64,000 nt of DNA. Origin: a bacterium (lineage in GTDB: Bacteria; Bacillota_I; Bacilli_A; RF39; UBA660). Below are positions 24,203-40,579 of this stretch, piece after piece. Under the pieces are notes generated by a model. That model saw only the letters and a list, made by a program, of their open reading frames with translations. It searched no databases and was not told where the DNA came from. Both the position numbers and the translations under genes were made by a program. The stretch is taken from the NCBI GenBank assembly GCA_029099845.1, contig JAQXOT010000011.1:41044-105043 (forward strand), read 5' to 3'. Each line of letters opens with the position of its first letter. Position 1 is the first letter of the stretch.

Positions 24203-27200
24203 TTAATTTGGATTTTTTAAATGATTTTATTGATATAGATTTGCAAAAAAACATGGCTATATCGGGTCTTACCGATGAGTTTTTTTGTGTTTATTTAAGC
24301 AACATTTTAAAAAATAATAAGAAAAACATTTTGGTTGTTGTTAATTCTTTATTTGAAGCTAATAGTTTATATTCTTCATTATCTTCATATACTGATAGGG
24401 TTTCTTTATTTCCTATGGATGATTTTCTTACTAGTGAAGCTTTAGCTATTAGTCCAGATCTTAGAATTACTCGATTAGAAACACTTAATAAATTAGTTAA
24501 TGGAGAAAGAAATATTGTTATTACCAATTTGATGGGTCTTTTACGTTTTTTGCCTAGTATTGAAACTTATCGTGAACATGTTTTAAAGTTGGATATTGGG
24601 GAGAATATTGAACCTAAAGCAATGGCTGAATTTTTGATTAATAGTGGTTATTCTCGTGATACTATAGTTAATAAAACTGGCGAATTTGCAGTGAGGGGAT
24701 TTGTTGTTGATGTTTTTCCTATTGATGAGGATTTTCCTATTCGTATTGAGTTTTTTGATGATGATATTGAATCAATCAGGTATTTTGATCCGGATAGTCA
24801 AAAGTCTATTAAATCTATTGATAGTATTTCAATTAATCCCTTTTTTGAATTTTTATCTACAAAAACTGTGGAAGATAATAAATTTGGTAAGCAAAAGTAT
24901 TTACCAGAGGTGGAAAAAGTTGTTTCCATTTGTAATTATTTGGATGATGGTTTAGTTTTTTTTAAAGATTATGAACAGTTAAAATTAGGTTATCAGCAAA
25001 TTGCTGAAGATATTATTACGTATAGGGAAAGTCATGATGAGAAGTTTAATGGTAAATATATGTTTGAACTTTGTGATATAAATCCTTCTTTTCCTATATA
25101 TTATATGAGTATTAATAATTTGTTAGATAATAATAAGTATTCAAAAATTGTTAATTTTGGAGTTAAAACTATTAGTAATTTTTCTGAAAATATTGATCAA
25201 ATTAATAGTTTTATTCGAAAAGCCATTGATAAGAATATGACGGTTCTTATTTGTTTAAAAGCATATCAGCTTGCAAGTTTAGTAAAAAGGTTAGTTGTTC
25301 CTTATGTCGATAGTAGTTTTGATTCAATAAAAATTGGAAAAGTTAATTTAATTGAATGTGAGATTAATGCGGGTTTTATTTATAAAAACATTATTGTTTT
25401 ATCGGCACATGAGTTGTTTTTATCAAAAGAAAAAAATAAGAAATATAATACCAAATTTAAGTATTCTACTAGTATATCTGATTTTTCTAAATTATCGATT
25501 GGTGATTATGTTGTTCATAATGTTCATGGAATCGGTATTTATAATGGTATAAAGACGTTGTCTTCTAACGGTATAACTAAAGATTATTTAGAAATTTTAT
25601 ATCAAGGTACTGATAAAATATATATTCCTGTTGAAAAAATTGAATTGATAAGTAAGTATTCAGGTAATGAAGGCATGGTCCCTAAAGTAAATAAACTTGG
25701 TGGTACTGAATGGGCTAAAACGAAGGCGAGAGTTAGAAAAAAAGTTACTGATATAGCAGATAAGTTATTAGCTTTGTATGCTGAAAGAGAAGCGCGAAAA
25801 GGTTTTGCTTTTTCTCCTGATTGTGATATGTCTTTAGAATTTGAGAGGGATTTTCCATATCAGTTAACTAAAGATCAAGCTAATGCTATTGTTCAGATAA
25901 AAAAGGATATGGAATCTTCAACACCAATGGACCGCTTATTGTGTGGTGATGTTGGTTTTGGTAAAACTGAGGTTGCTTTTGTTGCGGCCTTTAAGGCTAT
26001 TCTTGATTCTAAACAGGTACTTTTCTTATGCCCAACAACGATTTTATCGAATCAACATTATGAAAATGCTCAAAAGAGATTTGAAAATTTTCCTGTTTCA
26101 ATTGGTTTACTTAATCGCTTTACTTCAGAAAGCGAGGTAAAACGTATTTTAGCTGGCTTAAAAGATGGGACAATAGACTTGGTTTTTGGAACACATCGAC
26201 TATTGAGCGATGATGTTGTAGTTAAGGATTTAGGACTTTTGATTATAGACGAGGAACAAAGATTTGGGGTTTTACACAAAGAAAAAATTAAGCAATATAA
26301 AACAAATGTTGATGTATTAACGTTAACGGCAACTCCAATTCCTAGAACATTACAAATGTCTTTGGTTGGTATTAGAAGTTTATCATTAATTGAAACTCCG
26401 CCAATTAATCGTTATCCTGTTCAGACTTATGTTATTGAAGAAAATTTGCAAATTATTAGAGATGCTATTTACAAGGAGCTTAGTCGTGGGGGACAAACCT
26501 TTGTTTTATATAATAGGGTTCAATCAATAGAAGAAGAAAGGCTAAAAATTAGTAATTTGGTTCCAGAAGCAAGGGTAGCTGTAGCACATGGACAAATGAC
26601 TAAAAATGAACTTGAGGGCAGAATCATTGATTTTGTTGATCATAAATATGATGTTTTGGTTTGTACGACTATTATTGAAACTGGGATTGATATTCCCAAT
26701 GTTAATACGTTAATCATTATTGATGCTGATAATTTTGGATTGAGTCAATTATATCAAATACGTGGTAGAGTGGGAAGAAGTGATCAATTTGCTTATGCAT
26801 ATTTGATGTATAATCCTGCTAAAGTTTTAACGGAGACGGCAGTTAAACGTTTGAATGTAATCAAAGAGTTTACAGAACTTGGCAGTGGTTTTTCAATTGC
26901 AACGAGAGATTTATCTATACGTGGTGCTGGTGATATCCTTGGTAGTGAGCAAGCCGGCTTTATTGATTCTGTTGGAATAGATTTATTCTTAAAAATGCTT
27001 AATGATGAAGTTAATATTAAGAAAAATATTATCAATGATGATGCAACTGATTTAGAAAATGATACTATGCCACTTATAAATGTTAGTACCCATATTGATG
27101 ATTCTTACGTTAGTGAGGATGATTTAAAAATTGAAATTCATCGAAAAATTAGTGAAATTGATTCAGAGAAAAAATTTGTTGAAATTAAGAATGAACTAGA

Positions 27201-27528
27201 AGATAGATTTGGACGTTTAAATGATGATTTAATTGTTTATATGTATGAGGAATGGTTTGAAAAATTAGCTAATAAGTTAAAAATAAAGAAAGTTAAACAA
27301 ACAAAAAATTCTATTGAGATATATTTTTCAGGAGATATTGTTTCTAAAATGGATACTGAGACAATATTTATGGATGCCTTTTATATAACTAATATGTTTA
27401 GATTTATTAGTCGTGGTAATGATTTAATTATTGTTTTGGATATTATTAAATTGGACAAGCATCCTATTTATTATTTAGTGGAATTGTTAGATAAAATTTA
27501 TACTAAATTTGGAAATAAGATTGACTAA
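24199..27528 (+). CDS. mfd: transcription-repair coupling factor
   Basis: 1109 aa; DEAD/DEAH helicase motifs GDVGFGKTEVA and DEEQRFG; TRG motif; pth-mfd synteny; GTG start. Confidence 0.95.
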   Translation: MINLDFLNDFIDIDLQKNMAISGLTDEFFCVYLSNILKNNKKNILVVVNSLFEANSLYSSLSSYTDRVSLFPMDDFLTSEALAISPDLRITRLETLNKLVNGERNIVITNLMGLLRFLPSIETYREHVLKLDIGENIEPKAMAEFLINSGYSRDTIVNKTGEFAVRGFVVDVFPIDEDFPIRIEFFDDDIESIRYFDPDSQKSIKSIDSISINPFFEFLSTKTVEDNKFGKQKYLPEVEKVVSICNYLDDGLVFFKDYEQLKLGYQQIAEDIITYRESHDEKFNGKYMFELCDINPSFPIYYMSINNLLDNNKYSKIVNFGVKTISNFSENIDQINSFIRKAIDKNMTVLICLKAYQLASLVKRLVVPYVDSSFDSIKIGKVNLIECEINAGFIYKNIIVLSAHELFLSKEKNKKYNTKFKYSTSISDFSKLSIGDYVVHNVHGIGIYNGIKTLSSNGITKDYLEILYQGTDKIYIPVEKIELISKYSGNEGMVPKVNKLGGTEWAKTKARVRKKVTDIADKLLALYAEREARKGFAFSPDCDMSLEFERDFPYQLTKDQANAIVQIKKDMESSTPMDRLLCGDVGFGKTEVAFVAAFKAILDSKQVLFLCPTTILSNQHYENAQKRFENFPVSIGLLNRFTSESEVKRILAGLKDGTIDLVFGTHRLLSDDVVVKDLGLLIIDEEQRFGVLHKEKIKQYKTNVDVLTLTATPIPRTLQMSLVGIRSLSLIETPPINRYPVQTYVIEENLQIIRDAIYKELSRGGQTFVLYNRVQSIEEERLKISNLVPEARVAVAHGQMTKNELEGRIIDFVDHKYDVLVCTTIIETGIDIPNVNTLIIIDADNFGLSQLYQIRGRVGRSDQFAYAYLMYNPAKVLTETAVKRLNVIKEFTELGSGFSIATRDLSIRGAGDILGSEQAGFIDSVGIDLFLKMLNDEVNIKKNIINDDATDLENDTMPLINVSTHIDDSYVSEDDLKIEIHRKISEIDSEKKFVEIKNELEDRFGRLNDDLIVYMYEEWFEKLANKLKIKKVKQTKNSIEIYFSGDIVSKMDTETIFMDAFYITNMFRFISRGNDLIIVLDIIKLDKHPIYYLVELLDKIYTKFGNKID

Positions 27529-27572
27529 TTAGGTAAACTTTTGTTTAACTTATAATACTAGGAGGAAGAATA

Positions 27573-28229
27573 ATGAACGATACTGTTGCTGAATTAAGAA
27601 AAAATCATCTAATGAACTATAAAAATGCTTTGATGGAGAATGTTAAGAATAATACTAACGTATTGGTTGATGAAGACATTATGTCATTATTGAAAAAACC
27701 ACCACTTGATTCTATGGATTTAATAAAAACTAAATTTTTAGATATGGCTAAAAAAAATAAAGTTATTTTGAATACGGAAAATCTTAATGGTATGATAATT
27801 CAATATCGTGATGATTTAATTAAAGTTTGTCCTAAATTAAAAGAGATTAGGATTAATAGTTTAAATAGTAAAATTGAGGAATTTAAGTTGAATGATGATT
27901 TAGATGTTTTCAAATTGGCTAAAAAAGACTTTATTGTGATTAATAAAGAGCTTAAGAAAGCTATTAAAGAACATATTAAAAAGTATATTGATGAGGATAT
28001 TATTAATAAACTTGATTGTTTATTTTTAGATGATGTTGATATTGAGAAGAAGGAAAAGATTATTTTGGAAGTTAGTAAGTTTATAAATAGTTCTTATCAA
28101 AAACAGTTACTTGAAAATATTGATTTTAAGATTTTGGTTAAGGATACAATTTTAATGAATGGTGTTAAAGAACAAAATGAGCGATATCTTTTTACTTTAA
28201 ATAATTCTAGAATATTTAGTGATTTATAG
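27573..28229 (+). CDS. hypothetical protein (charged, helical)
   Basis: ORF with a GGAGG RBS; no recognisable motif. Confidence 0.5.
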   Translation: MNDTVAELRKNHLMNYKNALMENVKNNTNVLVDEDIMSLLKKPPLDSMDLIKTKFLDMAKKNKVILNTENLNGMIIQYRDDLIKVCPKLKEIRINSLNSKIEEFKLNDDLDVFKLAKKDFIVINKELKKAIKEHIKKYIDEDIINKLDCLFLDDVDIEKKEKIILEVSKFINSSYQKQLLENIDFKILVKDTILMNGVKEQNERYLFTLNNSRIFSDL

Positions 28230-28352
28230 GGCAGTTTGAGCTGTCTTTTTTTATGGAAATATTTACCAAGGGAAAAATTGGAAATATTGTTTATAATATT
28301 ATTGAGAAGCAAATATTAGTATAAATGATGGAGTTTTAGGAAAAATATAAGT

Positions 28353-28907
28353 ATGAAGAAAGTGAGGAATAATTTTATGAAGTCAACTGGTGTTGTTAGA
28401 AGAGTAGATGATTTAGGACGAATCGTTATTCCAAAAGAAATTCGACGTACTCTAAGAATTCGTGATGGTGAAGCTTTAGAAATATTTGTTGATAGTGAAA
28501 TGATTGCGTTAAGAAAGTTTTCTAAAATGACGGATATAAGTGAGGTTGCTAAAGAGTTAGTAGATATAATTAATAGTAATATAAATAAAACTGTATTGAT
28601 TACTGATCGTGATAAATTTATTGCTGGTTCTGGTTCTTTAAAAAAAAATTATGTGGAAAAGAACATTTCTAAGTTTTTAGAAAATATAATGTCAGATAGA
28701 AAAAGTGTTGTTGAAACAAGTAAACATCCAATTGAATTAGTAGAAAATTTTAAAGAGTCTCTTGCTTATGTAATATATCCTATTATTATGAATGGTGATG
28801 CTATGGGATTAGTATTAGTCATATCAGATAAGAGTGATATTGGTCAATTGGAAGAAAAATTAGTTAATATAACGGCCCAATTTCTTGGAAAACATATTGA
28901 AGAATAG
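28353..28907 (+). CDS. spoVT: stage V sporulation protein T (AbrB-type N-domain + GAF domain)
   Basis: STGVVRRVDDLGRIVIPKEIRRTLRIRDGEALEIFVD swapped-hairpin AbrB domain; 184 aa; mfd-spoVT synteny. Confidence 0.85.
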   Translation: MKKVRNNFMKSTGVVRRVDDLGRIVIPKEIRRTLRIRDGEALEIFVDSEMIALRKFSKMTDISEVAKELVDIINSNINKTVLITDRDKFIAGSGSLKKNYVEKNISKFLENIMSDRKSVVETSKHPIELVENFKESLAYVIYPIIMNGDAMGLVLVISDKSDIGQLEEKLVNITAQFLGKHIEE

Positions 28908-28924
28908 AAAATTTTATGTTATAA

Positions 28925-29165
28925 TTTGTCCATATCTCAAATGTTGTGATGAAGAATTCTAAAAAATTGAGCTATGAAAGAGAACTCTGTTGGTGGAAAT
29001 GAGGATAGTTTTTTTTAGAGTATGGCTTTTGAACTACTATATCGATATGTAGATATGGTCGTAGATAGGCGTTAACTATTTAAGTGTGTGATAATGAATT
29101 ATTATAAAGTAAGGTGGTACCGCGGAGAAATTCGTCCTTATGTTTATAGTAATTTTTTTATTGGA
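28925..29165 (+). promoter_or_regulatory. T-box riboswitch leader controlling metG
   Basis: Canonical T-box AAGGTGGTACCGCGG at 29111..29125, a downstream T-run terminator (29151..29160), and AUG codons in the upstream specifier region. Confidence 0.75.
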
Positions 29166-29187
29166 TTATAGTTTAGGAGGAATAATT

Positions 29188-30735
29188 ATGAAGAAAAAGT
29201 TTTATATTACAACAGCAATTGCTTATACATCTGGTAAACCACATATTGGTAATACTTATGAGGCTGTGTTAGCTGATGCTATTGCTAGATATAAAAGACA
29301 AAGAGGATTTGATGTTTATTTACAAACCGGTACTGATGAACATGGAGTTAAAATTGAGGAAAAGGCTTTGCAAAAAGGTGTTACACCACAGGAATTTGTT
29401 GATGATGTAGCTGCTGAAATTAAAAGAATTTGGGATTTAATGGATGTTAGTTATGATAAGTTTGTTAGAACTACAGATAAGCATCATGAAGAAGTAGTAC
29501 AACATATTTTTAAGAAAATGTATGAAAATGGTGATATTTATAAAGGAGAATATAAAGGCCTTTATTGTACGCCTTGTGAGTCATTTTGGACAGAATCACA
29601 ATTAGTGGATGGTAAATGTCCTGATTGTGGACGAGATGTTGAAATTTCTAGTGAAGAGGCTTACTTTTTTAAATTATCAAAATATCAAGACCGTTTGGAG
29701 AAATATTTTGATGAACATCCAAATTTTATTTTGCCAGTATCTAGAAAAAATGAGATGATAAATAACTTTATTAAACCAGGGCTTCAAGATTTATGTGTAT
29801 CACGGACTTCCATTAAATGGGGAATTCCTGTTTCTTTTGATGATAAACATGTTGTTTATGTTTGGCTTGATGCTTTGACTAATTATATTACTAATATCGG
29901 ATATGATGTAGATAATGAGACTGATGAATTTAAAAGGTTATGGCCAGCCGATTTACAAATTATTGGTAAAGATATTGTTCGTTTTCATTCTATCTATTGG
30001 CCTTGCTTTTTATGGTCTTTAGGCTTAGAGTTACCTAAACAATTATTTGGTCATCCTTGGCTTTTAACTAATAATGATAAAATTGGTAAATCAAGAGGAA
30101 ATGCTATTTATGCTGATGATTTAGTTGAAAAGTTTGGTTTAGATGCAGTAAGATTTTATTTGTTACACGAAATGCCTTTTGCAAATGATGGTAATATTAC
30201 ATATGATTTATTGATTGAGAGAATTAATGGTGAACTTGCTAATGTGTTAGGTAATTTGGTTCAAAGGACAATTTCAATGGGAAATAAGTATTTTGATGGA
30301 AAAGTTACTAATAAAAAAGTTAATTTGGATGTTGATAATAATTTTATAGAACTTATTAATGGTTTAAATAAAAAATTAGAAGATAAGATGGATAATTACT
30401 TAGTAAGTGATGCACTTACTGAAATATTCAGTGTTTTGAGAGCTAGTAATAAGTATATTGATGATACTACACCATGGATACTTGCAAAAGATGAATCATC
30501 TAGGGATAGATTAGAAACAGTTCTTTATAATTTATTAGAAGCTATTAGAGTATGTGCTGTTTTATTAGTTCCATTTATGAGAAATACTAGTGAAAAAATA
30601 TTGCACCAATTAAATAATAGTGTTGATAGTTTCTATTATGTTTCTGATAATAATTATGAGTTAGGGCAACCAGAAGTTTTATTCCAACGATTAGATAAAG
30701 AACAACTTTTAAAAGAGTTAAATGATGTAAAATAG
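29188..30735 (+). CDS. metG: methionyl-tRNA synthetase (short form)
   Basis: HIGN (PHIGNTYE), zinc knuckles CTPCE/CPDCG, KMSKS-type KIGKSRGN. Start moved to MKKKFYITTA, which has a GGAGG RBS. Confidence 0.95.
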   Translation: MKKKFYITTAIAYTSGKPHIGNTYEAVLADAIARYKRQRGFDVYLQTGTDEHGVKIEEKALQKGVTPQEFVDDVAAEIKRIWDLMDVSYDKFVRTTDKHHEEVVQHIFKKMYENGDIYKGEYKGLYCTPCESFWTESQLVDGKCPDCGRDVEISSEEAYFFKLSKYQDRLEKYFDEHPNFILPVSRKNEMINNFIKPGLQDLCVSRTSIKWGIPVSFDDKHVVYVWLDALTNYITNIGYDVDNETDEFKRLWPADLQIIGKDIVRFHSIYWPCFLWSLGLELPKQLFGHPWLLTNNDKIGKSRGNAIYADDLVEKFGLDAVRFYLLHEMPFANDGNITYDLLIERINGELANVLGNLVQRTISMGNKYFDGKVTNKKVNLDVDNNFIELINGLNKKLEDKMDNYLVSDALTEIFSVLRASNKYIDDTTPWILAKDESSRDRLETVLYNLLEAIRVCAVLLVPFMRNTSEKILHQLNNSVDSFYYVSDNNYELGQPEVLFQRLDKEQLLKELNDVK

Positions 30736-30849
30736 TGTCTAAAGAAAAATAAAAGAAAGTTTCTTAGTTGTAACTTTCTTTTATTGTGTTATATTTAATT
30801 GTGTTGTAATGCAGTTAGATGTATAAATTATTTTAATGAGGAGATTTAT

Positions 30850-31023
30850 ATGACTAATAAGTTACTTAAAAAGTTTTCTATTGATATATTTTTTATTGTA
30901 GTTAGTTTACTGTTAATTATTTCAATTATTCAAACTGCAAATATTATAGATATTGCTTATTTTTGTTGTGTTATCTATTATTATGCGAGAATTAAAATAT
31001 GTAGATGTAAAAAGTGCCACTAA
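30850..31023 (+). CDS. small hydrophobic Cys-rich peptide (57 aa), hypothetical
   Basis: GAGGAG RBS, one TM helix, C-terminal CCVIYYYARIKICRCKKCH. Confidence 0.3.
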   Translation: MTNKLLKKFSIDIFFIVVSLLLIISIIQTANIIDIAYFCCVIYYYARIKICRCKKCH

Positions 31024-31052
31024 TATGGTATTTTTGTTTTGGAGGTATTTTT

Positions 31053-31805
31053 ATGTTTGTAGATACACATTGTCATTTGTCTTCAGAGGATTATGATGAT
31101 ATAGATTTAGTAATAAAGGAAAATTTAGATAATGGTGTTTCTAAAATGATTATTTCTGCTTGTACATTTGAGACTTTGGATGAGGCTCTTTCTATTAGTA
31201 AGAAAAATGATTGTGTTTATGTTACTTTAGGCTTTCATCCATCGGAAGCTTTGGTGATTGATGATGCAAAATTAAAGCTATTGGCGGAAAAATTACAGGA
31301 TGATAAAGTTGTTGGTGTTGGAGAGATTGGACTAGATTATCATTATGGCAAGGATATGAGAGATTTACAAATTGAACTATTTGAAAGGCAACTTTCTTTG
31401 GCTCAAGAATTAAATTTACCGGTCGTTATTCATAGTAGAGATGCTACACTTGATACAATTAATACTTTGAAAAAATATAAGGTTAAGGGAATAATACATT
31501 GTTTTAGTGGCAGTTTAGAAATAGCTAAGGAGTATGTTTCATTAGGGTATAAACTAGGTATTGGTGGGGTTGTTACTTTTAGTAATTCTAAGTTGAGTGA
31601 TGTTGTTGCTGAAATTGGTCTTGAAAATATTGTTTTAGAGACAGATAGTCCTTACTTAACTCCAGTTCCATTTAGAGGAAAAAAGAATAGTTCAAAGTAT
31701 ATATATTTAGTAGCAAAAAAGATAAGTGAAATTTATTCGGTTTCTTTGGATGAAGTAGCTAAAATCACTACCGATAATTCTTTGTCATTGTTTGACTTGA
31801 AATAA
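31053..31805 (+). CDS. tatD: TatD-family metal-dependent DNase
   Basis: MFVDTHCHL start, HSRDA, IHCFSG and ETDSPYL motifs. Confidence 0.9.
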   Translation: MFVDTHCHLSSEDYDDIDLVIKENLDNGVSKMIISACTFETLDEALSISKKNDCVYVTLGFHPSEALVIDDAKLKLLAEKLQDDKVVGVGEIGLDYHYGKDMRDLQIELFERQLSLAQELNLPVVIHSRDATLDTINTLKKYKVKGIIHCFSGSLEIAKEYVSLGYKLGIGGVVTFSNSKLSDVVAEIGLENIVLETDSPYLTPVPFRGKKNSSKYIYLVAKKISEIYSVSLDEVAKITTDNSLSLFDLK

Positions 31806-31855
31806 AAATTGTGGTACTCTTTATTTGATAATGGAGATAATTAGGGGTTGATTCA

Positions 31856-32434
31856 ATGGCAAAAATTTTTAAAGTTGCTTTTAATCATAAGGGTTTGATT
31901 TTTTTAATTTTGATATTTGCTTTTTTCCTTGTAATTAATTGTTGGCCATTTTTTTCAAAGAAGGATTTAGTAGAAATTCGGCTAGTTGGGCAGGAGGATA
32001 TTGAACTTGTATCTAAATTACCACTTACTGATGAAAGTGCTAAACAACTTAGTATTGAAAATATTCAACCTGGGATAATTGGTTATGCTTCTTTTTCAGT
32101 TAAGTTAGATTCTGATGCAAAGAAGAGTTTTGAGTATGAAATATATTTGGAAGATATGGCAGATGAAAATATATTTAATTATGATTATGTGAAGGTTTAT
32201 TTGACTGATGATGAGGAGAAACCTTATGATCAATTTAGTGGAAATAAAGTTCCCACTTATAAAGATTTACGAGTTTCTTTAAATGAACCTAATAAGCGTT
32301 TGTTGTATAGTGGAGTAATAAATTCTTCAGAAATAAAGAAATTTAAATTACGAATATGGGTAGCAGATACTTATGTTTTAAGTGATATAGAAAAAGAATT
32401 TAAAGGAAAGATTAGTATTAAAACTATTTCTTAG
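31856..32434 (+). CDS. signal-anchored secreted protein, paralog 1 of 3 (putative SipW substrate)
   Basis: N-terminal hydrophobic segment; shared C-terminal motif KFKLRIWVAD with the two neighbours. Confidence 0.6.
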   Translation: MAKIFKVAFNHKGLIFLILIFAFFLVINCWPFFSKKDLVEIRLVGQEDIELVSKLPLTDESAKQLSIENIQPGIIGYASFSVKLDSDAKKSFEYEIYLEDMADENIFNYDYVKVYLTDDEEKPYDQFSGNKVPTYKDLRVSLNEPNKRLLYSGVINSSEIKKFKLRIWVADTYVLSDIEKEFKGKISIKTIS

Positions 32435-32442
32435 GAGGAATA

Positions 32443-33048
32443 ATGAGTAGTAAAAAGGGTGTTTCAAAGAAGTTAATTATTGGTTTGATTATTGCCAGTA
32501 TTTTGGTAGTATCAGTAATTTCTGTTACTTTGGTATTATTTATAAATAGGGAAAAAAATAAGGACGTGGAACGTTTTGATTCTGGCCTTATCAAGATGAC
32601 TTATGCAGAAAATAGTAATATTTTTTTCTTAGATAAATTGGTTCCGACAAGTGATGCTGTTGGTAAATTAAGTAATGATGCTAGTCAATATTATGATTTT
32701 ACTATTAATGTTGATTTACGTGATTCAGCTAGTGTTTCATATGAGTTAGCTTTAAAAATTGATGAAGAATTTACCTCTGCTTTGCCTAATACGATGCGTG
32801 TATATTTGGAAAGGCAGGAAAGTGGAAGCTATGTTCCTGTTTTAGAGCCAACAAGTTTTAGTGAGTTAAATTCTAAATCTCAGTATGGAGCTAGTAATGA
32901 TGAAGTGATTATCGCTAGTGTATCTAGTAAGGAAAATATTTCTCATAATTATCGTTTGCGTATGTGGCTTGCTGAAGATACGTTAGTTGATCCAGAAGTA
33001 ACGCAGAGTTTTGGTGTAGAAATTAATGTTTATGGAGAGGCTAATTAG
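32443..33048 (+). CDS. signal-anchored secreted protein, paralog 2 of 3
   Basis: N-terminal TM; YRLRMWLAED motif; RVYLERQESGSYVPV resembles IRIYLEKLVDGVYVPT in paralog 3. Confidence 0.6.
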   Translation: MSSKKGVSKKLIIGLIIASILVVSVISVTLVLFINREKNKDVERFDSGLIKMTYAENSNIFFLDKLVPTSDAVGKLSNDASQYYDFTINVDLRDSASVSYELALKIDEEFTSALPNTMRVYLERQESGSYVPVLEPTSFSELNSKSQYGASNDEVIIASVSSKENISHNYRLRMWLAEDTLVDPEVTQSFGVEINVYGEAN

Positions 33049-33094
33049 ACTCTTTTTCTTTCACATTCTTGAATTTATAGTTATGTTTTAGTGT

Positions 33095-33721
33095 TTGGAG
33101 GTATTTATTATGGATAATTCTTTATCTAAGCAAATCCTTTTATCTATTTTAGGAATTGCAATATTAATTATTGCTTTTGTTGGAATTTCATATGCAGTTC
33201 TTGTTACTGGCAAGAATACTGATAGTGATCAAGAAGATATTTCAATTTCTTTTATTAACAATAATTCTAATATTTTAACAGTTAATGCTTTATCTTTTAC
33301 TGATGATGAGGGGGTAAAATTATCTAGTGAAAATAATGTTTTTGATTTTGTTGTTAATGCTGATATTGTAAATGGGAGAGAATTTAATTACGAAATTGTT
33401 TTAAGGAAGATAGATGATCATGCTTTTTTAATTAATGGTAATGATATAAGAATTTATTTGGAAAAGTTAGTTGATGGGGTATATGTTCCAACATCAACTA
33501 AGATGCCCATTACTTTTGTTGCTAATGGTGTAGTTGATGAATATGGTAGCCCAGCTGATAGTATGACTATTTATACTGGCTTTTTGAAAAATGTGACTGA
33601 AGATGAAAGCCGTTTTGTTGAAAAATATCGATTACGTATATGGATTTCTCAAAACGCTCTTCTTGATGGTACTTTTGATAATTTTCAGATTGCACTTGAA
33701 CTTCATAGTAAAGTGTTGTAA
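33095..33721 (+). CDS. signal-anchored secreted protein, paralog 3 of 3
   Basis: N-terminal TM; YRLRIWISQN motif. Confidence 0.6.
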   Translation: MEVFIMDNSLSKQILLSILGIAILIIAFVGISYAVLVTGKNTDSDQEDISISFINNNSNILTVNALSFTDDEGVKLSSENNVFDFVVNADIVNGREFNYEIVLRKIDDHAFLINGNDIRIYLEKLVDGVYVPTSTKMPITFVANGVVDEYGSPADSMTIYTGFLKNVTEDESRFVEKYRLRIWISQNALLDGTFDNFQIALELHSKVL

Positions 33722-33812
33722 GAACATGTAAAGTGTTCTTTTTTTTCTTGTAAAATGTGGAAATTAAGGTAATTTGCATATTATAATTGTTTTAAAGTTA
33801 GGAGGCAGTAAA

Positions 33813-34454
33813 ATGAAAATTAGTGCTAAATATCTTAATTGCCAAAAAGATATGACTACGTTTGGTAAAATTAAGTATCTTTGCCATTTTATTGCACGGT
33901 CTTTTTTATGTGCTGTTTTAGTTTTTTTTATAATTTTCTTTGTATTTATGGTGAGTTATTTTGGAGATTTATTTTATAATTTAAGGCAGGGAAATAATAA
34001 ATTTCCTTTATTTAATGCTTATGTTATTGTTTCTCCTAGTATGGTGCCTACAATAATGGTTAATGATGCAATTGTTGTAAAAAGAGAAGATGGAGGAATG
34101 CTTAATATTGGTGATATTATAACTTTTTCTTCTGCAGATGCTTCTTATCCTGGTTTAACGGTTACACATAGAATTGTTAGTAAACAGAAGGCTCAAAATG
34201 GAAATTATATTTTTAGAACTAAGGGTGATAATAATAATATTGAAGATCCTACTTTAGTTAGTGAAGATAGTATTTATGGTAAGGTTATTTTAAAAATTCC
34301 AAAACTAGGTTATATTAGAAAGTTTTTATTGACTTCTTATGGCTTTTTCTTTGGTATTGTTATACCAGCGGTTGCTATTATTATATTGGATATTTTAAAA
34401 ATATTTAAAAGAAAAAAACATAAGTGCTCAGATGATGAATTGGAAATTATATAG
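33813..34454 (+). CDS. sipW: SipW-type (ER/archaeal-type Ser-His) signal peptidase I
   Basis: IVSPSMVPT catalytic-Ser box and THRIV His box; N- and C-terminal TM segments. Start moved to MKISAKY, which follows a GGAGG RBS. Confidence 0.75.
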   Translation: MKISAKYLNCQKDMTTFGKIKYLCHFIARSFLCAVLVFFIIFFVFMVSYFGDLFYNLRQGNNKFPLFNAYVIVSPSMVPTIMVNDAIVVKREDGGMLNIGDIITFSSADASYPGLTVTHRIVSKQKAQNGNYIFRTKGDNNNIEDPTLVSEDSIYGKVILKIPKLGYIRKFLLTSYGFFFGIVIPAVAIIILDILKIFKRKKHKCSDDELEII

Positions 34455-34577
34455 TTTGTTTTTTAAATTATATTTTTAGGTTGAAATTTATAGGTATTTA
34501 GTTTAAAATTTATGATACTTAATTTTATAAACTTTATGAGTTAACAATATTTTATTTAAAAAGTGGGGATTGAGTTT

Positions 34578-35381
34578 ATGGAAAAGTATGATGTTAAGTT
34601 TAAAAAAAAATTTGGTCAAAATTTTTTGAAAGATGTAAGTATTGTTTCAAGAATTGTTGGAGTTGCTGATATTGATAAGGAGGCTTTAGTAATTGAAGTT
34701 GGTCCTGGTGGTGCGATAATGACGCGTGAGTTGGCAAAGGTGGCTAAAAATGTTTTAGCATATGAAATTGATACTGAATTACAAGAAGAACTTAATAAGA
34801 GAATATGTGGTTTTGATAATATAGATTTGCTATTTTGTGATTTTTTGACGGCAGATTTGGGGAAAGATGTTTTAAAATATGAGTATGATAATTTATATTT
34901 TGTAAGTAATGTTCCTTATTATATTACGACTCCTATAATTATGAAATTAATTAATAGTGGCTTACAATTTAAGAAGATTGTTATGATGGTGCAAAAGGAA
35001 GTAGGAGATAGGTTTTCTAATTGCTGTGGAAGTAGAGACTATAGTTCTATTTCTGTATTATTACAGTATTATTTTAATGTTAAAAAGGAATTTTTGGTGC
35101 CAAGAAAGGAATTTATTCCAGTTCCTAATGTTGATAGTGTGGTAATTTCTTTTACTGAAAGAAAAGATAAACCATTTGTTTCTGATTTTAAATTTTTTGA
35201 ACAAGTAGTTCGAGATAGTTTTCAATTTAAACGTAAAAATTTAAGAAATAATTTAAAAAAATATAATCTTGATATTATTAGTGATGTGCTAAAAAAATAT
35301 GGTAAGGATTTAAGTGTTAGGGCAGAGGCTTTGGATGTTGATGTTTTTGTTGATTTAGCAAATGCTCTTTATAATAAATAG
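34578..35381 (+). CDS. rsmA: 16S rRNA (adenine1518/1519-N6)-dimethyltransferase
   Basis: FGQNFL motif, VIEVGPGGA SAM motif, NVPYYITTPII. Confidence 0.95.
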   Translation: MEKYDVKFKKKFGQNFLKDVSIVSRIVGVADIDKEALVIEVGPGGAIMTRELAKVAKNVLAYEIDTELQEELNKRICGFDNIDLLFCDFLTADLGKDVLKYEYDNLYFVSNVPYYITTPIIMKLINSGLQFKKIVMMVQKEVGDRFSNCCGSRDYSSISVLLQYYFNVKKEFLVPRKEFIPVPNVDSVVISFTERKDKPFVSDFKFFEQVVRDSFQFKRKNLRNNLKKYNLDIISDVLKKYGKDLSVRAEALDVDVFVDLANALYNK

Positions 35382-35452
35382 ATTTTACCTAGAATAATGA
35401 TAGTTCTAAAAATATAATTTAATTCATAGTATTAAAATGGAGATGATTAAGT

Positions 35453-35755
35453 TTGGAATTTAGAATCGGGGATTTAGTAACTAGAATTTCTTATAAGCAT
35501 GATGTTGTTTTTAAAATAATTGGTTTTGAAGGCAATACAGTATTCTTGAAGGGTGTTGATTTGCGATTAATTGCTGATTGTGAAATTGATGATTTGGTTA
35601 AAGCGGAACGAGGTTTTGATGATGATAAGGAAATTATTGAAGCAAATGTACGTGACATTAAAATTGATCGTAGTCAGTATTTTTATTTACCAGGTAAAAT
35701 TTTGCATATAGATGCTGATATATATTTAAGTAATAAACTTGTTAGTTCTTTTTAA
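35453..35755 (+). CDS. yabG: sporulation-specific protease YabG, 5' gene segment (interrupted by insertion)
   Basis: TTG start; (M)EFRIGDLVTRISYKHDVVFKIIG...RLIAD...YFYLPGKILHIDAD is collinear with B. subtilis YabG MQFQIGDMVARKSYQMDVLFRIIG...RLIAD...YFHMPGKVLHLDGD. It then runs into a foreign stop. Confidence 0.8.
   Translation: MEFRIGDLVTRISYKHDVVFKIIGFEGNTVFLKGVDLRLIADCEIDDLVKAERGFDDDKEIIEANVRDIKIDRSQYFYLPGKILHIDADIYLSNKLVSSF
35711..35730. other. attL-like junction of the yabG intervening element
   Basis: GATGCTGATA..TATTTA shares its core with GATGGTGATA..TATTTA at 47037, in the same codon phase. Confidence 0.6.
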
Positions 35756-35959
35756 AATAAGTAATTATTAAGGAAAAGTCTAAAATTTTATATTTTAATT
35801 AGATGGGTTAAAACAGGGATGGTTGTTCTTGTTTTTTTTGCGTAAGTTGTTTTTTTTCTTTCTTTTTTATTTGATATTTTGTTTTGATATTTACAATTTT
35901 TTTCTATTAATTATGTTTTTTTAATGTTATAATTGTTAATAGAGAAGGGTAGGAGTGTT

Positions 35960-37576
35960 ATGGGGAAAGTCAAAAAGACTACAAAAAATGATAGAACTTT
36001 ATTTTTTGTATGTTTATTGATATTTGTTGTAGTAGTTTTTATAGTGCCGTCTATACAGACAGTTACTACTAATATTGTTAATGTTAAAAATTCAAGGACG
36101 TTGCGTATTCTTTCATCATATGAGAACGAAGTGGTTGAAGAAGAAGTTAAGGCTTATGCTAAAAGCATTGATAAGCAAGTATCTTTTACTTATATGGGTG
36201 ATTTGGATATTGTTAGTGAGTTAAATAATAATTCTTCAAATTATGATGCTGTATGGATTTCTAATTCAATGTGGTTGTATATGCTTGATAATTCTTATTT
36301 AACAAGTGACTCAAAATCAATAAGTATTAGTCCCGTTGTATTTGGAATAAAAAGAAGTAAAGCTTTAGCTTTGGGACTTGTTGATACTGATGTTACTAAT
36401 ATGGATATTCTTAATTTGGTTAAAGAAAAAAAGATTAAGTATGTTATGTCTTCTGTAACTCAGACTAATGTAGGTGCTACTGCATATTTAGGATTTTTAT
36501 CATCTCTTGCTGGTAATCCAGAGGTTTTAACTGAAGAAATGTTGGATGATGAAAATTTAGTTAATGATTTAATTAGCTTATTTTCTGGAGTTGAACGGGT
36601 TAGTGGTGATGAATCTTATCTTGAGGATATGTTTTTAAATGATGATAATTATGAGGCGGTTATTGCTTCTGAGGCATCTTTAATTAATATTAATAAGCGA
36701 TTACAAAAACAAAATAAAGAAGAATTATATTTTATATATCCAAGTGATGGAGTAGCTATTAATGATTCAGCGTTTGCTTATATTAATAGTGATGAGGTAA
36801 AGAAGGAGACTTTTTTAGAGATTCAAAGTTATTTGCTTAGTGATGATGGACAGAAAATGCTTGAAGAAAAAGGGCAAAGAACTTGGTATGGTGGAGTTAG
36901 TGATAATAGTAATATTAAGATTTTTAATCCTAAGTGGGGAATTGATACTAAGAAGTATTTGAACGTGACGAAATTTCCTTCCAAAAATGTTATTACTAGA
37001 GCAATTAATTTATATATTGAGAAGTTAAGAAAGCCAACACATGTAGTTTTCTGTTTAGATTATTCTGGCAGTATGTCTGGTGATGGTATAGAAGAATTGA
37101 CAAATGCGATGGATTATATTTTAGATTATGATAAAGCTTCAGCTGATAAGTTGCAGTTTTCTGAAAATGATAAGATAACAGTTATTACATTTAATTATGA
37201 GGTTGATGATATTTGGCAAGCAGAAAGTGGTTATAATACTGCTGATTTGATACGTAATATAAATAATAAGTATCCAGTTGGTTCAACAGCACTTTATGAT
37301 GCTATTATAAGTGGCCTTGATATTTTAAGTGAGGATTCTGATGAGTATACTAAAACAATTATTGCTATGACTGATGGAGCGGTAAATGTTGGTACTTTTG
37401 AACATTTATCTTCGTATTATAAAAGTATTAATTCCGATATTCCTATTTATAGTATTACTTTTGGCGATGCCCGTGAATCACAATTAGAAGAAATTGCTAA
37501 ATTATCAAATGCTAGAGTTTTTGATGGTAAAACTAATTTATTAGAGGCTTTTAAAGATGTTAGAGGGTATAATTAG
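35960..37576 (+). CDS. membrane-anchored protein: solute-binding-protein-like domain fused to C-terminal vWA domain (TerY-like)
   Basis: N-terminal TM; vWA MIDAS motif VVFCLDYSGSMSGDG with ...GSTALYDAI...AMTDGA; the N-terminal domain is paralogous to ORF 38198..39388. Confidence 0.7.
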   Translation: MGKVKKTTKNDRTLFFVCLLIFVVVVFIVPSIQTVTTNIVNVKNSRTLRILSSYENEVVEEEVKAYAKSIDKQVSFTYMGDLDIVSELNNNSSNYDAVWISNSMWLYMLDNSYLTSDSKSISISPVVFGIKRSKALALGLVDTDVTNMDILNLVKEKKIKYVMSSVTQTNVGATAYLGFLSSLAGNPEVLTEEMLDDENLVNDLISLFSGVERVSGDESYLEDMFLNDDNYEAVIASEASLININKRLQKQNKEELYFIYPSDGVAINDSAFAYINSDEVKKETFLEIQSYLLSDDGQKMLEEKGQRTWYGGVSDNSNIKIFNPKWGIDTKKYLNVTKFPSKNVITRAINLYIEKLRKPTHVVFCLDYSGSMSGDGIEELTNAMDYILDYDKASADKLQFSENDKITVITFNYEVDDIWQAESGYNTADLIRNINNKYPVGSTALYDAIISGLDILSEDSDEYTKTIIAMTDGAVNVGTFEHLSSYYKSINSDIPIYSITFGDARESQLEEIAKLSNARVFDGKTNLLEAFKDVRGYN

Positions 37577-37584
37577 GTGTTATT

Positions 37585-38205
37585 ATGAAAAATAGTGAAA
37601 TTGTATCGGCAGCTATAGGTGGAACGTTTTTTGCTATACCTTATCTAGCTTTATCAGTGCCAATTATACCATCCTTAGCAATTGGTGCATGTGCTTTTGT
37701 AGCAGGAGAGCTAGTTTTAAAAAAAGATACTAAATTAAGTTTGAAAGAAAGTAATTTTTCTTTATACCAGACGTTGGAAGAGGCTAAAAAGCAAAATAAG
37801 CATATTTTTGATATGATATCGATGATAGAAAATGCGTCGGTAAAGAAAGATCTTAATGAGATTAATGATTCAGTTACTAAAATTATTAAAACAATTGAAA
37901 AAGCTCCAACTAAAGAAAAACAATTAAAAAATTTCTTTGATTATTATTTACCGGTTACAGTTAAACTAGTAGATCGATATGATGAGATTGAAAATCAAAA
38001 AATATCTTCTGTTGAAAGTAAGAAGTTTAATGAATCAACGGAAAAGATGATTAGTGAAATTAATAGTGTTTTTAAAAAATTCTTAAATAATTTATATCAA
38101 TCTGATATGTTGGATGTTAATGTAGAAATAAAGGTATTAAATTCTATGCTTAAAGCAGATGGACTAGATAAAGATGAATTGAAAGTTGGTGGAAAAGATG
38201 AATAA
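37585..38205 (+). CDS. XpaC-like membrane protein (5-bromo-4-chloroindolyl phosphate hydrolysis protein family)
   Basis: 206 aa with an N-terminal double-TM followed by a helical region, which is the XpaC architecture. It pairs with a TelA/YaaN-like gene, as xpaC-yaaN do in B. subtilis. Confidence 0.5.
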   Translation: MKNSEIVSAAIGGTFFAIPYLALSVPIIPSLAIGACAFVAGELVLKKDTKLSLKESNFSLYQTLEEAKKQNKHIFDMISMIENASVKKDLNEINDSVTKIIKTIEKAPTKEKQLKNFFDYYLPVTVKLVDRYDEIENQKISSVESKKFNESTEKMISEINSVFKKFLNNLYQSDMLDVNVEIKVLNSMLKADGLDKDELKVGGKDE

Positions 38206-39388
38206 GAAACAGATTGTTGGAATTTCGATGTTTGTAGTTCTTGTTTTAATTATTATTTTTATAAAAGTAGTTATGACAGGTAATAATGTTGATAATAAGA
38301 ATTTGACTACAGTTTATGTTGCAACTGGTGGTGGTAAAGAAGATTTTATAGCTGATGAAGAGGTTAATAAAATATTAAAGGAAAAATATGGGCTAAACGT
38401 AGTATTTGATTCTTGGAGTAATGGTAAAACAGTTACTTTGCCATTAATTAGAGAATCGGTAGGACTTGGTAATCAGGAAATTATTGATCGGTTGAGTAAT
38501 GGTGAAAAAATTACAATTAATACTGAAGGTGTTTCTAAGTATGATGCTTTGTTTACTTCAGATCAAAGATTTTATGATTATTATAAATTGGCACCAAATA
38601 GTGCTAATAATGAAAGTGATAGATATATGGTTTTAGATGGTGGATTAACACTAAATACACCTATTGTTATTTATTCATGGAAAGAAGTTGCTAATAAATT
38701 GATTGATGAGGGTATTGTTACTAAAACCGATGAAATTTATTATATTACTGATATGAATAAGTTGATTGATTATATTTTGAGTGGCAAGACATGGAATGAA
38801 ATTGGTTTATCTGATTTGTATGGAACCATTAATATTTCTTCAACAGATCCTGTGTCTTCATCACCTGGAGCTACTTATTATGGATTATTGTTATCAATTT
38901 TAGGCAACGGTCAGATAACAGATGAAGGATTAGAAGATAATTTAGCTAAATTAAAACAATTTTATCAACATTCTGGTTATATGAATAATACACCAGCCGA
39001 TTTGTTTGAAAGATATTTGAAAACTGGTATGGGTGGTGCCCCAATGATTGTTGATTATGAAAAAAGTTTGATTGATTTTGCTAATTCTAATCCTAATGGA
39101 TTTCTTCAAGTAAAAGATGATATCGTTGTTTTATATCCAAAACCAACAATTTGGAATTCTCATTGCTTTGCGGCTTTTAGTGATAGTGGTAAGAAATTAT
39201 ATCAAGCATTACAAGATGCTGATATTCAGCAAATTGCTTTTGAAAAGTATGGATTTAGAACTGGTATAACTGGTGGAAATTATGATGTGTCTTCTGTTGG
39301 CATTGCTATTCCAAAATCAATTAATAGTACTGTAAGTAGTCTAAAAATGGACTATTATAATAGATTGATAGATTATTTAAAAAATTAG
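38198..39388 (+). CDS. membrane-anchored periplasmic-binding-protein-like protein (paralog of N-domain of 35960..37576)
   Basis: N-terminal TM; SPGATYYGLLLSILGNG resembles NVGATAYLGFLSSLAGN in the vWA protein. Confidence 0.6.
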   Translation: MNKKQIVGISMFVVLVLIIIFIKVVMTGNNVDNKNLTTVYVATGGGKEDFIADEEVNKILKEKYGLNVVFDSWSNGKTVTLPLIRESVGLGNQEIIDRLSNGEKITINTEGVSKYDALFTSDQRFYDYYKLAPNSANNESDRYMVLDGGLTLNTPIVIYSWKEVANKLIDEGIVTKTDEIYYITDMNKLIDYILSGKTWNEIGLSDLYGTINISSTDPVSSSPGATYYGLLLSILGNGQITDEGLEDNLAKLKQFYQHSGYMNNTPADLFERYLKTGMGGAPMIVDYEKSLIDFANSNPNGFLQVKDDIVVLYPKPTIWNSHCFAAFSDSGKKLYQALQDADIQQIAFEKYGFRTGITGGNYDVSSVGIAIPKSINSTVSSLKMDYYNRLIDYLKN

Positions 39389-39399
39389 GAGGTATTTGT

Positions 39400-40542
39400 A
39401 TGGCTGCATTGGAAATTAAGCTAGAAAATAAAAATGATGAAAGGGTAAATGATTTAGCTAATAGTAAAACTAAAATTACTGAATCTAAAATTGAAAAGTC
39501 TTTAAATTATGATGTGTTGAGTGCTGAAGAGAAAAAGGCTGTTGATGAATTTAATGCAAAGATAGATGTGTTTGATTCTACACAAATTTTACAATATGGA
39601 TCAGCTGCTCAAAATAAGATATCAGATTTTTCTGATTCTATTCTTGAAGATGTTAAAACAAAAGATACTGGTGAAACTGGAGAATTATTAGCTGATTTGG
39701 TTGCACAAATTAAAAGTTTTGATTCTTCTATTGGTGAGAAAAAAGGAATTTTTAAAATTTTTAATAATGTAAAAAGACAAGTTAATTCTATTATTGCTAA
39801 ATATAGTAAAATTGAGAATAATATTGATAGTATTGAAAAAGGATTGGATAAAAATAAGATTCAGTTATTAAAAGATATTAGTATATTTGATGAAATGTAT
39901 CAAAAAAATTTGGAGTATTTTAAAGAAATATCTTTATATATAATTGCTGGTGAAAGGAAAATAGAGGAACTTAAGAATGTAGTTTTACCAGAACTTAAAA
40001 AAGTAGCAGAGGAATCTAGAGAGCAATTAGATATCCAAAAGGTTCAGGATTTAGAAGCACAAATTAATCGATTTGAAAAGAAATTATATGATTTAAAAAC
40101 AACAAGAATTATATCTATTCAAATGGCACCACAAATTAGATTGTTACAAAATAATGATGCAGAGTTAGTAGAAAAGATTCAAAGTTCAATTACTAATACT
40201 ATCCCATTATGGAAAAATCAAATGGTTCTTGCTTTAGGTCTTAATAACGCTAAGAAATCTTTAAAAGAACAACAGGCTGTTTCTAACTTGACAAATGAAA
40301 TGCTATCTAAAAATAGTGAGACTTTAAAACAAGGTACTTTGGAAGTTGCTAGAGAAAGTGAAAGAGCTATTGTTGATATTGAAACACTTAAGAAAACAAA
40401 TAAAGATTTGATAGAAACTTTAGATGGTGTAATTAAAATTCATGAAGAAGGAAGAGTTAAGAGAGCCCAAGCTGAGGAAGAATTAAAGAATATTGAACAA
40501 GAGTTAAAAGATAAAATCTTGGAAATAAATGTTAATAAATAA
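39400..40542 (+). CDS. TelA/YaaN-family toxic-anion-resistance-like protein
   Basis: ILQYGSAAQNKISDFSDSILEDVKTKDTGETGELLADLV is the TelA signature; 380 aa and coiled-coil rich. Confidence 0.7.
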   Translation: MAALEIKLENKNDERVNDLANSKTKITESKIEKSLNYDVLSAEEKKAVDEFNAKIDVFDSTQILQYGSAAQNKISDFSDSILEDVKTKDTGETGELLADLVAQIKSFDSSIGEKKGIFKIFNNVKRQVNSIIAKYSKIENNIDSIEKGLDKNKIQLLKDISIFDEMYQKNLEYFKEISLYIIAGERKIEELKNVVLPELKKVAEESREQLDIQKVQDLEAQINRFEKKLYDLKTTRIISIQMAPQIRLLQNNDAELVEKIQSSITNTIPLWKNQMVLALGLNNAKKSLKEQQAVSNLTNEMLSKNSETLKQGTLEVARESERAIVDIETLKKTNKDLIETLDGVIKIHEEGRVKRAQAEEELKNIEQELKDKILEINVNK

Positions 40543-40579
40543 GCATTATTTTTAATGCTTTTTTAATTAGGAGATGAAT

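Follow-up and report, generated by a model that had tools for sequence, protein, structure and literature searches.

What do three consecutive genes for related exported proteins, followed directly by a gene for a signal peptidase, contribute to the cell surface of a gut bacterium? The question is raised by positions 31,856 to 34,454 of a 64,000-nucleotide stretch (positions 41,044 to 105,043, forward strand, of contig JAQXOT010000011.1, assembly GCA_029099845.1), hereafter called the window, which comes from a member of the RF39 lineage of Bacilli. Both RF39 and RFN20 are abundant in the gut; neither lineage has a cultured member, their genomes are small, and their cell walls are in part reduced. 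An original prediction, made from the letters of the window alone, had proposed a fibre or matrix locus resembling those of TasA and BsaA. Our analysis leans, with modest confidence, towards a divergent SipW-dependent system, probably one that forms a surface fibre by donor-strand exchange. The cassette consists of a peptidase of the endoplasmic reticulum (ER)/archaeal type and one to eight copies of proteins of ~200 amino acids (aa), each with a Sec-type leader and a predicted jellyroll-like sandwich of ~170 aa, and is held by a clade of uncultured, small-genome gut Bacilli similar to RF39 and RFN20.

Three paralogous proteins and an adjoining signal peptidase

All four genes lie on the plus strand. 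Paralog 1 (31856..32434, 192 aa), read from its open reading frame (ORF) and translation as a family member and candidate anchor, is followed by paralog 2 (32443..33048, 201 aa), a family member with a degenerate cleavage region, and by paralog 3 (33110..33721, 203 aa), the candidate processed subunit. BLASTP links every pair (1e-4 for 1 versus 2, 3e-16 for 2 versus 3, and 4e-7 for 1 versus 3) and thereby establishes, as far as sequence goes, a paralogy beyond chance. Each protein starts with a short basic N-terminus and continues with a hydrophobic stretch of 21-24 residues, confirming the three paralogs of ~200 aa with N-terminal hydrophobic leaders that had been described at the outset. The internal motifs in common that had been pointed out, including YRLRIW, were recovered as well, since Y-L (..VYLE..), L-R-x-W (YRLRIW) and P..D..GK are shared by the paralogs and near-invariant throughout the family. 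Alignment to the family profile shows that none of the three window paralogs has lost the core residues P66, D69, K73, F84, Y98, Y118-L119, L175-R176 and W178.

The fourth gene (33813..34454, 213 aa) encodes a type I signal peptidase of the ER/archaeal type (SipW-like, S26B). The protein scores 80.9 bits against TIGR02228, the model for archaeal/ER-type signal peptidase I (cut-off 51.85; model positions 6-154 of 158), and stays under the cut-offs of both the Bacillus SipW equivalog NF046067 (74.2 bits, cut-off 190) and the bacterial P-type model TIGR02227 (22.7 bits, cut-off 47). Because TIGR02228 was passed and the other two models failed, the profile matches establish the enzyme as SipW-class and yet indicate that it is no SipW orthologue. 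The catalytic candidates are Ser76 (SPSM), His119 (THR) and Asp139 (GDN), and S76, H119, D139 and D145 are conserved at 95% or more across 67 aligned relatives. Hydrophobic stretches are found close to both the N- and the C-terminus. The TIGR02228 score and the conserved residues thus support the earlier description of an ER-type Ser-His signal peptidase with SPSM and THR boxes.

A large gut family with a conserved leader

A word-indexed search returned 97 relatives of the window proteins, all unnamed and all from gut metagenomes, and a hidden Markov model (HMM) search of 1.84 billion cluster representatives yielded 5,576 matches at E<=1e-3, 2,766 at E<=1e-10 and 502 at E<=1e-30. The family members found so far belong to uncultured gut Bacilli, represented by RF39/RFN20-like metagenome-assembled genomes (MAGs). 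When the window paralogs and 49 members were scanned against Pfam and NCBIfam, no model was found to cover the family, and the weak Omp28 and DUF2589 matches of the paralogs were dismissed as chance. A cluster look-up of ten diverse family representatives likewise gave no name in any source.

Many members are much longer than those of the window. Among the best 150 representatives, 57 of the 144 newly returned ones measure 280-1,743 aa and carry the module at their extreme N-terminus, followed by Big_2 or Listeria-Bacteroides repeats. An LPXTG motif and a C-terminal membrane anchor were looked for in these long members, and neither was found. Many of the long members (P0110-P0228) end in a common motif, ..GVRP[VA]xYLKS......G.GT...PY.L, and in locus L043 (2133-5495) a member of 1,120 aa lies within the cassette with small subunit genes on both sides.

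The leader of typical members reads M..(K/R).. h-region ..V-G-V-S-[FY]-A↓A-F-[TS]-Y-[ST]-K-x-G-x-x-x-N-x-I-T-T-G-T-I-x-M-x-Y-T-E, where the arrow marks the putative cleavage site. G-x-[ST]-x-A is present in 408 of 557 distinct members, with S (89%) or T (10%) at -3, A at -1 (99%), A at +1 (66%), F at +2 (81%), Y/F at +4 (81%) and S/T at +5 (83%). By these frequencies the site motif of the family obeys the (-3,-1) rule, and typical members are likely cleaved after S-[FY]-A by the adjoining enzyme.

In hhalign comparisons the leader aligned in register with the TasA consensus VGGGTWA↓AFND..N.FAAGTLDL...NLKPGD. The family gave E 0.0024 against a single TasA sequence, which had been checked against 8aur and 5of1, and E 7.3e-5 (probability 62.6%) against the TasA family over 61 columns comprising the leader and ~36 residues. 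The TasA model NF046066 was matched by 5 of the 49 members, the most of any NCBIfam model and tied with PRK10591.2-1; the best match aligned N-terminus to N-terminus (E 4.4e-4), and the best score of 19.8 bits was far under the cut-off of 450. These alignments indicate that a TasA-type leader and N-terminal organisation are present in the family; by the same sequence comparisons, homology to TasA over the whole domain is not established.

The predicted fold

AlphaFold2 modelled full-length paralog 3 with a mean predicted local distance difference test (pLDDT) of 85.5 as a helix of 32 residues at the N-terminus and, after it, a beta-sandwich of ~8 strands. The typical member P0061, modelled from its predicted cleavage site (pLDDT 87.3, predicted template modelling score 0.84), formed a sandwich of nine to ten short and long strands, and its residues 1-13 (AFTFTKTGKVENT) had a pLDDT <50 despite ranking with the most strongly conserved positions. 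The fold so predicted is a beta-sandwich of jellyroll-like type, preceded by a disordered N-terminal tail. When the leaderless P0061 model was compared with 350,542 PDB chains using Foldseek, three donor-strand filament subunits appeared within the top 27: the Sulfolobus thread (7pnb) at rank 10 with a probability of 0.92, AbpA (7ueg) at rank 15 with 0.98, and the TasA fibre (8aur) at rank 27 with 0.87 and a TMq of 0.37.

The 32-residue helix of the paralog 3 model would also suit subunits that keep their hydrophobic helix and whose filament is held by helix packing, in the style of type IV or archaeal pilins. The h-region is indeed unusually conserved, 5 of 49 members weakly match Pfam Pilin_N (best E 0.007), and a PDB search by sequence, using the family profile, gave weak matches to the archaeal pilin chains 6nav and 8tib (E 0.09-0.9). 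Apart from these archaeal pilins, which are at chance level, that search returned only membrane-segment matches, and the pilin matches rest on hydrophobic residues. Moreover, the family has no class III leader, with no G/A at -1 ahead of the hydrophobic stretch, and neither a prepilin peptidase nor, in the annotated loci, a pilus ATPase or platform protein was found. A pilin-like assembly is highly improbable, given also that the adjoining gene encodes a type I signal peptidase and that the conserved S-x-A site is found where the hydrophobic stretch ends, on its C-terminal side.

Genomic context across related genomes

To place the block among its relatives, one genome per species was searched with 20 typical members as query, and the loci obtained were scanned with our own HMMs. 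The 77 loci returned came from MAGs labelled uncultured Bacilli, Tenericutes or Clostridia, including Candidatus Onthousia and Clostridium sp. CAG:451. In every one of the 48 loci that hold both flanks, the peptidase gene and one to eight family genes lie between tatD and ksgA, the two genes that bracket the cassette in the window. Since all 48 share this slot, the block is lineage-fixed and not accessory, and the synteny indicates a lineage-wide, vertically inherited feature. The original prediction had considered the block accessory to this lineage, a claim refuted by the presence of the same slot in dozens of species-level genomes and by the composition of the flanks. A mobile or accessory island was ruled out on the same grounds, as both G+C content and GC skew of the block are those of its surroundings. 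The proposed association of the peptidase with a cognate paralog family, by contrast, was upheld by tight coupling in 48 of 48 loci.

In 34 of these 48 loci an extra family gene of ~180 aa starts at the peptidase stop codon or at most 4 bases from it, usually with a 4-base overlap, so that strict synteny and gene overlap are both established from the gene coordinates. In Candidatus Faecimonas (GTDB order RF39; 28% G+C and a 1.4 Mb genome), which came from a separate look-up, the loci have the same order as the window, namely a paralog 1-like, a 2-like and a 3-like gene and then the peptidase gene. Where a locus had no peptidase gene, it was cut by a contig end or belonged to a single fragmented MAG, in which the copies are dispersed and an insertion sequence element is present.

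The post-peptidase family gene (L001 10231-11926; L005-L077) has the leader MKK..(G)T-S-[YI]-[AL]-W-Y-x-F-F, the site being A↓W or L-W depending on the lineage. Between this gene and ksgA, L001 has two further genes, unannotated and of 230 and 161 aa, both with a hydrophobic stretch near the N-terminus. The window contains neither the post-peptidase gene nor these two unannotated genes. In the rabbit-gut MAG Lapin-012 bin84 (loci L062, L063, L067, L070, L074, L075, L078 and L081), at least eight family copies are dispersed, some of them forms of 380-606 aa and none adjoining a peptidase, and at the tatD locus of this MAG the cassette is interrupted beside a transposase-like gene.

The window locus as a derived cassette

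Paralog 3 is the sole window copy with the (-3,-1) site of the family (SYA), in the leader ...AFVGISYA↓VLVTG. It is identical to the 203-aa protein P0001 in public MAGs, and its best BLASTP matches are genes located directly upstream of the peptidase gene in other loci. Cleavage of paralog 3 is probable, at a lower confidence than that of typical members.

In paralog 2 the hydrophobic anchor spans 24 residues (LIIGLIIASILVVSVISVTLVLFI) and the cleavage region, ISVT↓LVLF, is degenerate; the first strand GLIKMTYAE and the core motifs are retained. The best matches of paralog 2 are typical cleavable members (124 bits).

The signal-anchor of paralog 1 consists of the n-region MAKIFKVAFNHK and the h-region GLIFLILIFAFFLVINCWPFF, with no small residues at -3/-1. 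In the alignment it has a gap where other members have AFTYS...N.ITTG, meaning that the whole tail segment is deleted. The same anchor, uncleavable by its looks, recurs in approximately 23 orthologues (50-60% identity), which argues that this architecture is maintained and not decaying. Being devoid of both site and tail, paralog 1 looks like a membrane-anchored, acceptor-only subunit. The possibility that it is a lipoprotein, raised by its VINC motif, was ruled out because the Cys is not conserved among the orthologues. The window locus is read as a reduced, derived version of the cassette.

A proposed mechanism and its alternatives

In the mechanism that we propose, which follows the precedents of SipW with TasA/TapA and of SipW with BsaA (PMC9674648, PMC10151520, PMC11580942), the N-terminal leader would direct the family proteins to export by Sec, after which the adjoining peptidase (Ser76/His119/Asp139) would cut the members with G-[VI]-S-[FY]-A↓A-F; among the window paralogs, paralog 3 would be the one so processed, past SYA at residue 29. 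The freed tail (AFTYS.. in typical members) would then enter the sandwich of a neighbouring subunit as a beta-strand, giving rise to a surface fibre comparable to those of TasA, BsaA and AbpA. Paralog 1, with no tail and an uncleavable-looking anchor, and paralog 2, with its degenerate site, would stay membrane-held and tether the fibre as an acceptor-only base or adaptor. The insertion of the tail as a strand is suggested because the tail is conserved beyond the needs of a peptidase site, yet is predicted to be disordered in the monomer. Whether the family proteins polymerise is in our judgement evenly balanced, and the anchor role of paralogs 1 and 2 is put forward as tentative.

A number of results weigh against this reading. 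The cleavage site is absent in two of the three window paralogs, and in paralog 3 positions +1/+2 are V-L and not A-F and the N41..TTG segment is missing, the window copy thus being the least typical one. Of the signal-peptide cleavage sites that the original prediction had expected, the site in paralog 3 (SYA↓VL) was found in part, and paralogs 1 and 2 have none, the segment that follows being missing from paralog 1 too. PF12389 gave no match at E<=1 to the window proteins or to the 49 members, the SipW-cognate leader models TIGR04088, -89 and -90 were not reported either (E<=1), and none of the models for TasA, camelysin and SipW-cognate leaders reached its own cut-off. Consequently, the expected SipW-cognate leader holds at the level of the family, where S-[FY]-A↓A-F is in register with T-W-A↓A-F of TasA, and does not hold as a match to a curated model (TIGR04088). 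When only the mature part was used in hhalign, the same stretch aligned best, and the similarity to TasA was not significant (E 0.1, probability 0.6%). The Foldseek matches are weak (E 4e-4 to 5e-3; template modelling (TM) score <=0.38, with 8aur and 7ueg at 0.36-0.37), the list consists mostly of other jellyrolls (CBM, PA14, birnavirus VP2 capsid, Pgp3 and TNF-like), and full-length paralog 3 returned generic sandwiches with TasA outside the top 50. The anticipated TasA-like fold is weakly indicated by these searches, in which the predicted jellyroll-like sandwich bears a weak likeness to TasA, AbpA and the Sulfolobus thread subunit (TM ~0.36). AbpA is not readily linked to monomeric TasA by automated structural searches either (PMC9245690), and the weak structural score is therefore decisive in neither direction. 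Finally, a search for a P-type signal peptidase found none in the 64-kb window or in the ~1.2 Mb of 81 related loci, a sample that does not make up a whole genome.

The Foldseek list can also be read as pointing to monomeric surface beta-sandwich proteins, acting as adhesins or in carbohydrate binding, some of them released by the peptidase and others anchored, with an N-terminal region conserved only for recognition by the peptidase. The top matches are CBMs, PA14 and other non-polymerising jellyrolls, many members carry adhesin-type repeats (Big_2, Flg_new), a weak CBM_4_9 match was seen, paralogs 1 and 2 resemble plain signal-anchored proteins, and the likeness to TasA is restricted to the leader region. 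However, positions +1 to +8 of the mature N-terminus are conserved, which signal peptidase substrates normally do not need, and this conserved tail is predicted to be disordered in the monomer. Furthermore, tandem arrays of up to eight subunits of near-equal length are typical for heteropolymeric fibres, and the long members, once cleaved, would have no other way of staying on the cell. We consider monomeric proteins a rather unlikely explanation, albeit the most serious of the competing ones.

The failure to find a P-type (LepB/SipS-like) enzyme in the window or in the 81 related loci bears on a further alternative, in which the peptidase is the general, perhaps the only, signal peptidase I of the cell, kept beside its most abundant exports with no dedicated pairing. 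The query in that search was the B. subtilis SipS sequence, and it produced weak matches only, all to SipW-type genes. The host genomes are small (~1.4-1.5 Mb), the peptidase gene is surrounded by housekeeping genes, and in one fragmented MAG the many family copies are dispersed and lack an adjoining peptidase, all of which would fit a general enzyme. On the other hand, adjacency in 48 of 48 loci and the frequent overlap with the start of a family gene favour co-expression and co-evolution, and the leader of the substrates is unusually conserved and family-specific. A general role is improbable in our view, and a sole signal peptidase I would still process these proteins, so that it would change the word 'dedicated' and not the mechanism.

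Comparison with known systems

Among the precedents for the proposed SipW-dependent fibre system, SipW processes TasA and TapA, and TasA fibres are built by donor-strand exchange (PMC9674648); TapA contributes a complementing strand (PMC10151520). The cassette resembles tapA-sipW-tasA of B. subtilis (sipW-tasA-calY in B. cereus) in that an ER-type peptidase gene lies beside its exported substrates. The leader is of the form [ST]-[WFY]-A↓A-F, followed in register by ..N.[FI]..GT[LI].[LM].. and N[LA].P, and the mature part is a beta-sandwich, as predicted for this family. One of the paralogs is probably devoted to anchoring or nucleation, the part that TapA plays. In contrast to TasA, the family falls outside PF12389 and NF046066, similarity in the mature domain is not significant, and the domain is ~170 aa instead of ~230 aa. 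The anchor candidate is a subunit paralog here and not an unrelated protein of the TapA type, and the cassette, which has up to eight tandem subunit genes, is fixed at tatD-ksgA.

The C. perfringens operon sipW-bsaA-bsaB-bsaC provides a second precedent, in which BsaA oligomers are attached to the membrane and not to the wall, and in which BsaA combines donor-strand exchange with an N-E-K isopeptide lock (PMC11580942). A survey described the BsaA/TasA superfamily as extremely divergent and widespread, its operons commonly holding a signal peptidase and several paralogs (PMC11580942). As in C. perfringens, a SipW-like enzyme here adjoins several remote TasA-like paralogs of a family with very divergent sequence, and the monomer has a predicted disordered N-terminal loop, as does BsaA. 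The proposed membrane-held base formed by paralog 1 would echo the membrane attachment of the BsaA oligomers (PMC11580942). Asn41, Glu54 and Lys73 (P0105 numbering) are conserved across the family at 83%, 74% and 72%, respectively; the Asn lies in the tail region, the Glu at the end of the first strand and the Lys after P..D..G, a set of residues that recalls the N-E-K triad of BsaA. The system differs from that of BsaA, with which it was compared by description only, in that Asn41 is absent from all three window paralogs. The VWA gene of the window, which might be compared with bsaC, is not conserved with the cassette.

A third group consists of the AbpA bundling pili (7ueg; PMC9245690) and the Sulfolobus 0406 thread (7pnb), which share with this family small jellyroll/Ig-like subunits, a cleaved type I signal peptide and an N-terminal donor strand, the cleavage and the donor strand being part of our proposal. 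Both figure near the top of the structural matches to the mature model (ranks 15 and 10), although their TM scores are 0.31-0.36 and there is no sequence similarity. AbpA-type archaeal pilins use a generic signal peptidase, with none dedicated nearby (PMC9245690), which sets them apart from the cassette described here.

As SipW enzymes with TasA-like paralogs are already established and the divergence of the superfamily has already been surveyed (PMC11580942), the locus introduces no new principle. What is new is a very large unannotated family with a smaller domain and with anchor candidates derived from paralogs, the fusion of the module to large adhesin-like proteins lacking LPXTG, and the constant chromosomal location in RF39/RFN20-like gut Bacilli.

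Gene layout and flanking regions

The flanking genes, which are outside the system, are tatD on the left (31014..31805, plus strand; PF01026 8e-76, TIGR00010 256.6 bits) and ksgA/rsmA on the right (34563..35381, plus strand; TIGR00755 232.6 bits), and these matches agree with the original placement of the four genes between the two. They bracket the cassette in related genomes too. The start of paralog 3 was set at the ATG at 33110, which follows GGAGG, the mechanical ORF opening at a TTG at 33095. Similarly, the peptidase was taken to start at the ATG at 33813 after AGGAGG, its mechanical ORF opening at 33774. The lengths of 192, 201, 203 and 213 aa were also obtained by independent gene callers in four other assemblies of the same organism.

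Between paralog 3 and the peptidase gene, a hairpin with a U-run (33720..33746, plus strand) begins at the stop codon of paralog 3. It has an 8-bp stem (AAGAACAU/GUGUUCUU) and a 5-nucleotide loop ahead of the U-run, and the predicted RNA fold of -7.2 kcal/mol corresponds to a z of -2.2 versus shuffles. Because it has few G-C pairs, it was missed by a consensus scan. The hairpin could serve as a leaky intrinsic terminator, setting the peptidase gene apart from the subunit genes. A scan of 30000-36500 with Rfam found no RNA family.

GC skew across 26000-40000 is strongly positive (0.13-0.56) and all called genes there are on the plus strand, which fits a leading-strand region. Between metG and tatD lies a small ORF (30799-31023) with a hydrophobic, Cys-rich product; it has 57 aa in the calls of others (741-914, L082-L085), and L001 has a 53-aa gene in the same place. 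Downstream of ksgA, yabG, the gene for a sporulation peptidase of family U57, is represented at 35453-35755 by a 100-aa N-terminal remnant, called alike in four independent assemblies. In the related genomes L001, L003 and L004, full-length yabG (254-262 aa) is followed by veg, spoVG and yabP, and the remnant suggests sporulation-gene decay in this lineage. Further downstream, a cluster at 35933-42166 encodes a solute-binding-like and VWA protein (547 aa), an XpaC-like protein (PF10112), TelA (E 2e-118), an AAA ATPase and a 400-aa protein without a family match. The VWA gene, 1.5 kb downstream of the cassette, was ruled out as a bsaC analogue, as it is part of this VWA-XpaC-TelA-AAA cluster and, in related genomes, does not accompany the cassette.

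Significance for uncultured gut Bacilli

For annotators of these genomes, the analysis provides the motif G-[VI]-S-[FY]-A↓A-F-[TS]-Y-[ST] and a fixed address, tatD-ksgA. RFN20 has been reported to be without sortases, a lack interpreted as 'reduced surface protein expression' (PMC10868615), and a role in sortase-independent display is therefore of interest. A large unannotated family (thousands of clusters at 50% identity) with its own ER-type peptidase may be a route to fibres and to adhesin display, and it would extend the donor-strand theme of TasA, BsaA and AbpA to a family unrecognised by current domain models. In a broader view, which we consider unlikely, the N-terminal module of ~200 aa would serve wall-reduced gut Bacilli (RF39/RFN20) as a general plug-in for displaying proteins on the surface independently of sortase. 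Following cleavage of the SipW type, any protein bearing the module would insert its freed tail into the next module, be it a small subunit or an adhesin-like protein of 400-1,700 aa, and paralogs without site and tail, such as paralog 1 of the window, would be membrane-embedded, acceptor-only bases. If this view is true, full pilus and adhesin display would be achieved without sortase, chaperone-usher or type IV machinery and would be chromosomally fixed in an uncultured clade.

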